Assembly: GCA_963701135.1 (NCBI GenBank)
Contig: OY969567.1
Location: forward strand, 1,537,847-1,601,846
Length of the DNA: 64,000 nt
Source: an uncultured Chloroflexia bacterium
GTDB taxonomy: Bacteria; Chloroflexota; Dehalococcoidia; DSTF01; JACRBR01
Direction: 5' to 3'
Below the pieces are notes generated by a model. The model was not told the DNA's origin. It saw nothing but the letters and a program-made list of their open reading frames with translations, and did not search any database. This document shows, piece after piece, positions 40,393 to 41,031 of this stretch. The position numbers and the translations under genes are program-made. Positions within the stretch are counted from its first letter, which is position 1. Each line of letters begins with the position of its first letter.

Positions 40393-41031
40393 TTAGTACA
40401 GGTCGATGATGGACTGGTTCAGCGACGACGGCGTCGAGCGCTGCATGACCAGGTACGAACCGGTCGGAGGCTTGATCTCCAGGATGAACGTCTGGTTCGT
40501 GCCGACGTTGAACACCGGGCCGCCGGTCTGGGTGCCGAAGTTGACCGTCACCGTCATCAACTCGCCCTGCTGCAACAGCAGGTTGGCATTACCGGTGATC
40601 GCCTGCACCGTGTATTCGAGGTCCGGGTCGATGACGTCCTTGTCGATGTAGCTGATGACGGTCCGGTTCGTCACGTCGGAGTTGTTCATGTTGACGCTGT
40701 CGCCGCCGGCCGCGAGCGTCACGCTGAAGGTGACCTTCGTGATCTTGACCGTATCCGAGTTCGCGATCACACCGCCGGTGAGCGTCATCGTGCCGCGGGT
40801 CTTGGCGAGACCGGCGTAGACCGCCTCCTTGCCGCGCTCCGAGCTGAACAGACCCGTGCTGAGGACGACGAATGCGAACACCGCGGCCACAACGACGAAC
40901 GCAATGAGGATGATCGCGGTCTCGAGACCGGTGATGCCTCGTTCGCCATCGCGCTGCGGCTCAGGGCCGCCATCCCCGCCCGCCGCGGCCCTGGTGCGCC
41001 ATCGGCTCAGGAGCCCGATTAACCTGCCCAT
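40393..41031 (-). CDS. archaellin-like protein (archaeal flagellin / class III signal-peptide family)
   Basis: AGGAGG RBS 6 nt before ATG 41031. Leader ends ...RDGERG followed by [56 protein letters not shown]. This parallels crenarchaeal archaellins (..[57 protein letters not shown], recalled from memory). Confidence 0.7.
   Translation of the reverse strand: [212 protein letters not shown]

Follow-up and report, generated by a model that had tools for sequence, protein, structure and literature searches.

Archaella have been published for 243 of 3,780 Chloroflexota genomes (Sivabalasarma et al., Nat Microbiol 2025, PMC12488501), and that of Litorilinea aerophila is functional, supports swimming and has a structure at 2.7 A; its archaellin, ArlB, carries a 28-aa leader and has Ile29 as the mature N-terminus (PMC12488501). 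According to an ArlIJ tree, the Chloroflexota archaellum came from Methanotecta euryarchaea, and the bacteria that bear it are without flagellar genes (PMC12488501). In the published layout, the arlB genes and then the machinery genes stand in a single locus, with the peptidase encoded outside the arl loci; dispersed archaellin copies are not mentioned (PMC12488501). Two further described systems are relevant here: SAR202 'Candidatus Lucifugimonas marina', a Dehalococcoidia-related organism that has an arl operon and several copies of arlB (summarised in PMC12488501), and Halobacterium salinarum, whose five archaellin genes are divided between two loci and whose filament contains all five proteins (PMC4307647). 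We analyzed a 64,000-nt stretch of contig OY969567.1 from an uncultured Chloroflexia bacterium, placed in Dehalococcoidia by GTDB (this whole stretch is referred to as the window), in which a 212-codon gene for an archaellin stands beside the ribosomal protein gene rplU. From sequence and structure comparisons, we consider that this gene probably encodes a functional archaellin (ArlB), as a satellite copy that lies away from the arl cluster and would be assembled by a motor encoded elsewhere in the genome.

The 212-aa protein is a genuine archaellin, as judged from its full-length profile match and its sequence and model-based structure matches. The Pfam family Arch_flagellin (PF01917) matched with an E-value of 5.9e-23 and 82.4 bits (cut-off, 29.5) over residues 32-197, corresponding to positions 1-161 of the 162 in the profile, and the NCBIfam model TIGR02537 (archaellin/type IV pilin N-terminal domain) scored 34.6 bits against a cut-off of 20. 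The best match in a PDB sequence search was 9i5h (E 4.4e-35; residues 33-204 of the query on 1-176 of the chain), which Foldseek names as the bacterial archaellum of L. aerophila. The AlphaFold2 model (mean pLDDT 81.8) consisted of a disordered leader, a helix at residues 35-76 and a beta domain with nine strands. When this model was compared with the PDB using Foldseek, the 17 best matches were all archaellin structures (E 1e-15 to 3e-7), headed by 9i5h at 43% identity, and the matches that followed were the related stator proteins ArlF and ArlG. The initial annotation, which had recognized an archaellin with a class III signal peptide from the letters alone and had proposed a profile hidden Markov model (HMM) search and a structure prediction as checks, was therefore borne out in this respect: no Flp/Tad or other pilin family emerged as the best match, and no Flp, Tad, N-methylation-site or bacterial pilin family was found at E <= 1 in Pfam and NCBIfam. 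Its suggestion of a crenarchaeal resemblance was not supported, since among solved structures the L. aerophila bacterial archaellin comes closest and the published origin lies in the euryarchaeal Methanotecta (PMC12488501).

These matches also bear on the alternative that the protein is a subunit of another archaeal-type or bacterial type IV filament (an adhesion pilus, Tad/Flp or type IVa) that is built by non-archaellum machinery. Class III signal peptides are common to archaellins and type IV pilins, TIGR02537 covers both, and Tad and type IVa pili occur in many Chloroflexota (PMC12488501). However, the whole globular domain of the window protein fits the archaellin profile and structures with no pilin family matched, its mature N-terminus is almost identical to those of archaellins inside arl clusters, and no pilus machinery is present in the window; we regard this alternative as extremely unlikely.

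Compared with L. aerophila ArlB (9i5h), the window protein belongs to the same family, has the same fold and shows the same mature N-terminus after a glycine. Residue 1 of the mature L. aerophila chain aligns to I33, the leader preceding it ends in ERG, and the motif G-ITGLETAI at this place is invariant among the homologs; by homology, cleavage between G32 and I33 is predicted. The leader is long in both proteins (32 aa here, 28 aa there), and the segment behind it that would form the filament core is almost invariant (residues 34-75, over 44 homologs). The system as a whole is also similar in content: related genomes hold arlB, a candidate gene at the arlCDE position and arlF/G/H/I/J, with ArlH and ArlI seen in locus L007 and in more distant loci and ArlF/ArlG as candidates. 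In contrast to the published single-locus layout, no machinery lies within 23 kb of the window gene, which stands beside rplU and belongs to a separate subfamily. A further difference is found at the metal site reported for L. aerophila ArlB, where D127 and E131 are replaced by N and Q, respectively.

The window spans 40 kb on one side of the archaellin gene and 23 kb on the other. We built profile HMMs from gene families found repeatedly near the archaellin genes of 80 related loci, namely ArlF/G (two families), ArlH, ArlI, ArlJ, an unnamed protein of ~230 aa and a LuxR-type regulator, and ran them unfiltered against the six-frame translation of the whole window. The sole gene that scored was the archaellin gene itself (E 4e-77). 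The HMMs of ArlF, ArlG, ArlH, ArlI and ArlJ found nothing in this translation (best E 0.51-6.9), and all remaining matches in the window were at chance level (E 0.07 to 7). An A24 prepilin-peptidase HMM made from six loci gave a best E-value of 7.3 in the window, and no Pfam A24 match was found there either. In some Anaerolineae-type loci, a Peptidase_A24 gene stands next to arlJ. Neither a T2SSE or T2SSF gene nor tad/pil machinery is present in the window. The earlier statement that no arl machinery or prepilin peptidase lies near the gene is thus confirmed by the HMMs and Pfam over all 64 kb.

The initial annotation had implied an unusual acquisition that stands alone, and had proposed a search for arlI and arlJ in the rest of the genome. 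P0001, a protein that shares 100% identity with the window protein, comes from a single 3,617,538-bp contig (NCBI/ENA). Four more archaellins of 194-195 aa (P0048, P0058, P0094 and P0115), an ArlI ATPase of 587 aa (P0378) and an ArlJ platform protein of 530 aa (P0448, a member of cluster P0126) are also each recorded on one NCBI/ENA contig of 3,617,538 bp, and from the equal size and source we infer that all of them lie on the same contig as P0001. The four archaellins, which are of the cluster type, share 64-66% identity with the window protein over the full alignment and 69% in local BLASTP. With ArlI, ArlJ and four more archaellins apparently in the same genome, the window archaellin is not an orphan, and the idea of a stand-alone acquisition is not supported.

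A close relative shows where the cluster may be found. In assembly GCA_040960765.1 (contig JBFOMR010000013.1), an ortholog with 82% identity (P0012) lies at 152,781-153,404, divergent from the L21-L27-L31 genes and in surroundings collinear with the window, and an arl cluster lies at ~106-112 kb, ~41 kb away from this ortholog in the direction of rplU. This cluster contains a GerE/LuxR regulator gene, three arlB genes, a 228-aa gene, arlJ, a 150-aa gene and an amidase gene, together with two PF01917-like genes of 151 and 170 aa that are candidates for ArlF/ArlG by family resemblance. With the same offset, the cluster of the source genome would be placed near 76,000-82,000, past the window end at 64,000. 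In the genome with another ortholog (P0008, 86% identical), P0008 and an ArlJ (P0250) are each recorded on a contig of 1,052,633 bp.

The clusters of a Dehalococcoidia clade, consisting of L083 (GCA_040960765.1), L001, L002, L004, L005 and L009, have a common order: a LuxR-type regulator gene, one to four arlB genes, a ~230-aa gene, two arlF/G genes, arlJ, a ~150-aa gene and amidase_3. Neither arlH nor arlI is present within 10 kb in these six loci (for GCA_040960765.1, within 10 kb of arlJ). In L007, arlI-arlH lies upstream on the opposite strand. By comparison, the arl genes are all kept together in the published description (PMC12488501).

A scan of species-representative genomes yielded at least 459 relatives, the best match among those listed being 67% identical to the window protein, and 80 loci were kept, to which L. 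aerophila does not belong. Of these loci, 79 are labelled Chloroflexota, mostly Dehalococcoidia. They comprise 40 arl clusters, 16 archaellin genes without machinery (defined as at least 8 kb on both sides without machinery) and 24 loci too short to classify; archaellin genes without adjacent machinery therefore account for 16 of the 56 classifiable loci, and several assemblies hold both types of locus, among them CP070630.1 (L033 and L040) and JAJCYW01 (L013 and L017). The solitary arrangement, previously thought to be outside the described pattern, is accordingly not rare, and the remark that archaella are known in 'a few Chloroflexota' was too low in view of the published genome count cited above (PMC12488501). 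The sole locus with a label other than Chloroflexota is L025 (JAIMBG010000020.1), from a metagenome-assembled genome labelled Acetobacteraceae (Proteobacteria), in which the archaellin gene lies 136 bp from the contig end; misbinning or another transfer event may account for it.

The positions of these separate genes are themselves conserved. The place next to rplU is kept in L081, L010, L011 and L012 amid collinear housekeeping genes, a second position, with arlB upstream of folP, is found in L018, L019, L021, L035 and L058, and a third is common to L034 and L041. Dispersed archaellin copies at housekeeping positions of their own thus recur across Dehalococcoidia lineages and are not a one-off. 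A comparable arrangement exists in H. salinarum (flgA1-A2/flgB1-B3), where very similar archaellins are encoded at separate loci, one of which is beside accessory genes; however, H. salinarum is an archaeon with archaeal promoters, and its second locus consists of two tandem genes rather than a single gene near ribosomal protein genes. The several arlB genes of 'Candidatus Lucifugimonas marina' offer another parallel, in a Dehalococcoidia-related Chloroflexota archaellum.

We defined a satellite subfamily as the protein clusters that share 72% identity or more with the window protein in the mature region and compared it with the other 85 top matches. The subfamily comprises 35 protein clusters, and its leader is 27-32 aa long, compared with 16 aa in the cluster-type and other copies. 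Its members are further distinguished by residues I41 (V in the others), A70 (T), P136 (N), Q154 (E), T160 (E), I183 (T), P202 (A) and the C-terminal Y212 (N), as well as E139. Within the core helix, the window protein differs from the cluster-type archaellins of its genome essentially only at I41 (V) and A70 (T), and this otherwise invariant helix fits co-assembly with cluster-type subunits. There is thus both a conserved position and a tight subfamily around the window protein. A reading of the rplU-linked copies as one clade was rejected: in a neighbor-joining tree, the smallest group that held all five contained 135 of the 242 sequences, and L010, L011 and L012 were at least as distant from the window protein as the cluster-type copies.

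None of the five rplU-linked genes is disrupted, and dN/dS between pairs ranges from 0.24 to 0.51, below 1 in 10 of 10 pairs. The window gene is thus very probably functional: the position is kept, the genes are intact, dN/dS is below 1 and the window gene has a ribosome-binding site and a promoter-like element of its own. These data weigh directly on the possibility that the gene is a decaying orphan, that is, an unused duplicate or horizontally transferred copy left beside rplU by chance. The separation of the gene from all machinery in the window would agree with such a history, as would the alteration of two putative metal-site residues, and the frameshift in the neighboring ftsH gene (see below) indicates that the region or its assembly is not error-free. 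A decaying gene, however, would hardly be expected to retain an intact frame over the full profile length with the N-terminal 45 mature residues invariant, dN/dS below 1 in every pair, its position in five genomes, a subfamily of 35 clusters in public data, a strong ribosome-binding site and a conserved upstream motif; we judge this explanation very unlikely.

The upstream motif resembles a promoter of the sigma-28 (FliA/SigD/WhiG) type (Table 1), and from it transcription would be predicted to start near 41140-41145 (- strand), with a leader of ~110 nt. The consensus of sigma-28, found at class-3 flagellin promoters, is TAAA-N15-GCCGATAA. A corresponding element, cccTAAAG-N14-16-CCGAnnA(T), was observed upstream of five of five rplU-linked copies, upstream of six more machinery-free archaellin genes (L018, L019, L021, L035 and L058, which are arlB-folP loci, and L077) and upstream of the first arlB in the clusters L007 and L016. 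Scored with the published consensus, 13 of 89 first-arlB upstream regions reached a score of at least 7, compared with 0.9% of 3,000 random 330-nt windows taken from the same DNA. In a strict form, the motif has 14 distinct sites in 2.6 Mb (both strands), 10 of them directly upstream of archaellin genes and one (L023) upstream of a LuxR-type response regulator gene that adjoins an archaellin gene; the strict pattern was refined on the same data, and its specificity is partly circular, whereas the published-consensus score is not. In this data set, the motif was seen in Dehalococcoidia only and not in Anaerolineae-type loci. The element resembles sigma-28 flagellin promoters in its two blocks, its spacing and its place before a filament-subunit gene, and differs from them in that the downstream gene encodes an archaeal-type archaellin and not a flagellin. 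Promoters and FliA are absent from both PMC12488501 and the 2026 chemosensory preprint, and a literature term search found no paper that joins archaella, FliA and Chloroflexota; the sigma-28-type element of the satellite archaellin genes therefore appears to be undescribed.

Just downstream of the -10 block, two degenerate CCTAGGG-like boxes are present in the window, and one to three CCTAGGG(G)AA boxes, ~13 nt apart, occupy the same place in L081, L012 and L010. Such boxes are also found upstream of the first arlB in the clusters L083 (before 5754), L001 (6537) and L004 (9929), where the upstream regions are without the TAAAG element. Their role may be that of an operator for the neighboring LuxR-type regulator or of an element in the 5' leader. 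For the cluster-type arlB upstream regions, a sigma-54 reading was rejected by eye on account of the GG/GC spacing, and a CsrA-type reading of the GGA-rich 5' leader was dropped as unsupported.

From this pattern we tentatively propose that the Dehalococcoidia satellite archaellin genes (beside rplU and, elsewhere, folP) are transcribed by sigma-28, which would place a filament gene of archaeal origin in a flagellar-style sigma regulon in the absence of a flagellum. Expression would then have two tiers, with an alternative sigma factor serving the satellites, a LuxR-type regulator that may control the arl cluster, and the CCTAGGG box shared between them. We consider this proposal plausible, though it falls somewhat short of being probable. 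In another reading, the satellite protein would be the major, late-expressed subunit, analogous to a FliA-dependent flagellin, with the cluster archaellins as the specialized ones. Sigma-28-type promoters classically drive the major flagellin gene (fliC, hag), the motif is here almost confined to satellite archaellin genes, and the ribosome-binding site is of the consensus form; on the other side, cluster-type copies outnumber the satellite, with four in the source genome, and the Anaerolineae-type loci are without the motif. This exchange of roles seems to us rather unlikely.

The reading that we prefer, a functional satellite archaellin served by a motor encoded elsewhere, would involve the following steps. 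The gene would be transcribed alone, apart from the divergent rplU operon, from its sigma-28/FliA-like promoter. The class III signal peptide would insert the 212-aa preprotein into the membrane, and a PilD/PibD-type peptidase encoded elsewhere would remove residues 1-32, as suggested by the homology to L. aerophila ArlB. The ArlI ATPase and the ArlJ platform protein would then add the mature protein to the rotating filament. Since the core helix is near-identical to that of the cluster archaellins while the outer domain, the leader and the promoter differ, the satellite archaellin most likely co-assembles with, or replaces, the cluster archaellins, as a separately regulated alternative or specialized subunit.

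Several observations weigh against this interpretation. The placement of ArlI and ArlJ on the contig of the window gene is drawn from the equal size and source of the records. The archaellins of L010, L011 and L012 share no more than 61-63% identity with the window protein, and the orthology of all five rplU-linked copies rests on position, with no monophyly claimed; since the neighboring proteins at the rplU-linked loci are 70-97% identical, it follows that the outer domain evolves quickly, as archaellins usually do. At the aligned metal site, the changed residues (N150 at D127 and Q154 at E131) suggest that the outer domain may behave differently from that of L. aerophila. With respect to the promoter, the -10 block of the window, GACGAACA, agrees with GCCGATAA at only 5 of 8 positions, compared with 6-7 of 8 in the blocks of the orthologs (for example, TAAA-N15-GCCGACAA with 7 of 8 in L012); the first arlB of the cluster L016 has TAAA-N15-GCCGAATA. 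Finally, the window and 85 loci yielded no FliA-type sigma factor, a negative result that covers only ~1.3 Mb and is hence uninformative; a FliA regular expression and phmmer returned one sigma factor from this set, which is of the extracytoplasmic function (ECF) type by Pfam.

The features of the locus are summarized in Table 1. The 212-codon frame and the strong AGGAGG ribosome-binding site described by the initial annotation were both verified, as were the neighbors that it had named: an ABC-F ATPase gene (38412-40304, + strand) is convergent with the archaellin gene, and rplU (L21; 41341-41979, + strand) is divergent from it and followed by L27 and then L31, in surroundings of Chloroflexota housekeeping genes. 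A mechanical list of open reading frames (ORFs) gives a longer in-frame start, GTG at 41118. The ATG at 41031 is preferred, because the GTG is without a ribosome-binding site and the archaellin orthologs and homologs start at the ATG position.

Table 1. Coordinates of the archaellin gene, its predicted protein segments and the neighboring signals in the window
Feature	Position	Strand	Basis or remark
Satellite archaellin gene (arlB paralog)	40393..41031	-	212 codons and stop; ORF and translation, PF01917, PDB 9i5h, Foldseek
Ribosome-binding site AGGAGG	41038..41043	-	6 nt before the ATG at 41031; read in the sequence
Class III signal peptide, residues 1-32, predicted cleavage between G32 and I33	40936..41031	-	Alignment to the 9i5h mature chain
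Hydrophobic alpha-helix at the mature N-terminus, residues 33-76, putative filament-core segment	40804..40935	-	AlphaFold2 helix 35-76
Beta-rich globular domain, residues 77-212, variable outer face	40396..40803	-	AlphaFold2 strands 82-210, pLDDT ~90
Sigma-28 (FliA/SigD/WhiG)-type promoter-like element TAAAG-N16-GACGAACA	41150..41177	-	Sole window match, 0.04 expected; putative function
Two degenerate CCTAGGG-like boxes (TCCTGCGGGAATCCCTTAAGG)	41129..41149	-	Immediately after the -10 element; operator or 5'-leader candidate
Sigma-70-type promoter TTGACA-18-TAGAAT of rplU-rpmA-rpmE	41303..41332	+	11 of 12 consensus matches
GC-rich hairpin GGGCGGCC-N8-GGCCGCCC, possible bidirectional terminator	40326..40349	.	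Between the convergent archaellin and ABC-F genes; weak

The sigma-70-type element of rplU is also visible in the upstream sequences of L081, L012 and L010, and it suggests that the archaellin gene has a promoter of another type than its ribosomal neighbors. The hairpin between the convergent genes is present in the minimum free energy (MFE) fold of 40300-40395 (-41.7 kcal/mol), with a z-score of only -1.6 relative to shuffled sequence, and it was not called in a consensus terminator scan. An Rfam search of the 36-46 kb region found nothing.

Over all 64 kb, the ~57 ORFs annotated with Pfam are housekeeping genes only, including those for ThrRS, FtsH, ABC-F, ribosomal proteins, HisF/HisI, S2, EF-Ts, UppS, CdsA, Dxr, RseP and IspG. 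Some of the surrounding sequences show peculiarities of their own. The ftsH gene (36327-38088, + strand) is split over two frames near 37347-37351: the AAA domain is encoded in the first, and the AAA-lid and M41 peptidase domains follow in the second. Relative to L081 and L012, where ftsH is a single ORF, the window has one extra base, the T in gcagaTgatcctgg, which points to an error of assembly or to a true pseudogene. In the window and in L010, the ABC-F gene is placed between ftsH and the archaellin gene, whereas in L081 and L012 it is missing from that place and ftsH is the direct convergent neighbor; this is an insertion or deletion inside otherwise collinear DNA. L21 has a C-terminal extension rich in Ala, Pro, Glu and Gln, which brings it to 212 aa compared with ~100 aa for the Pfam domain and is encoded at 41818-41949 (+ strand) by 3.4 copies of a 39-nt unit with 98% identity; the L21 of the related locus L081 is likewise long (204 aa). 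Partial Pfam profile matches were obtained for UppS (53097-53897), two GFO/IDH/MocA pieces (13522-14316 and 14940-15671) and the C-terminal part of an FGGY gene (61789-62979). At the left edge of the window there is a fragment of an IS110-family transposase gene (Pfam Transposase_20; 242-781, + strand).

The presence of archaeal motility genes in bacteria was surprising when first reported and is now established for Chloroflexota, and in this respect the window gene is mainly one more instance. What it adds is a conserved and separately placed archaellin subfamily of Dehalococcoidia that is set off by the length of its leader and by its surface residues; because the single-locus layout was published with no mention of dispersed copies, this subfamily is an addition to that description and not a contradiction of it. 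Detectors based on gene clusters, such as MacSyFinder, would undercount archaellin repertoires if they score clustered genes only, given that the 16 machinery-free loci have none within 8 kb. The lead with real novelty is that the satellite subfamily appears to carry a promoter of the bacterial flagellin type. If true, this would represent a regulatory rewiring of a machine transferred between domains, and the predicted sigma factor and operator would provide a handle for inducing archaellation in hard-to-grow Chloroflexota.

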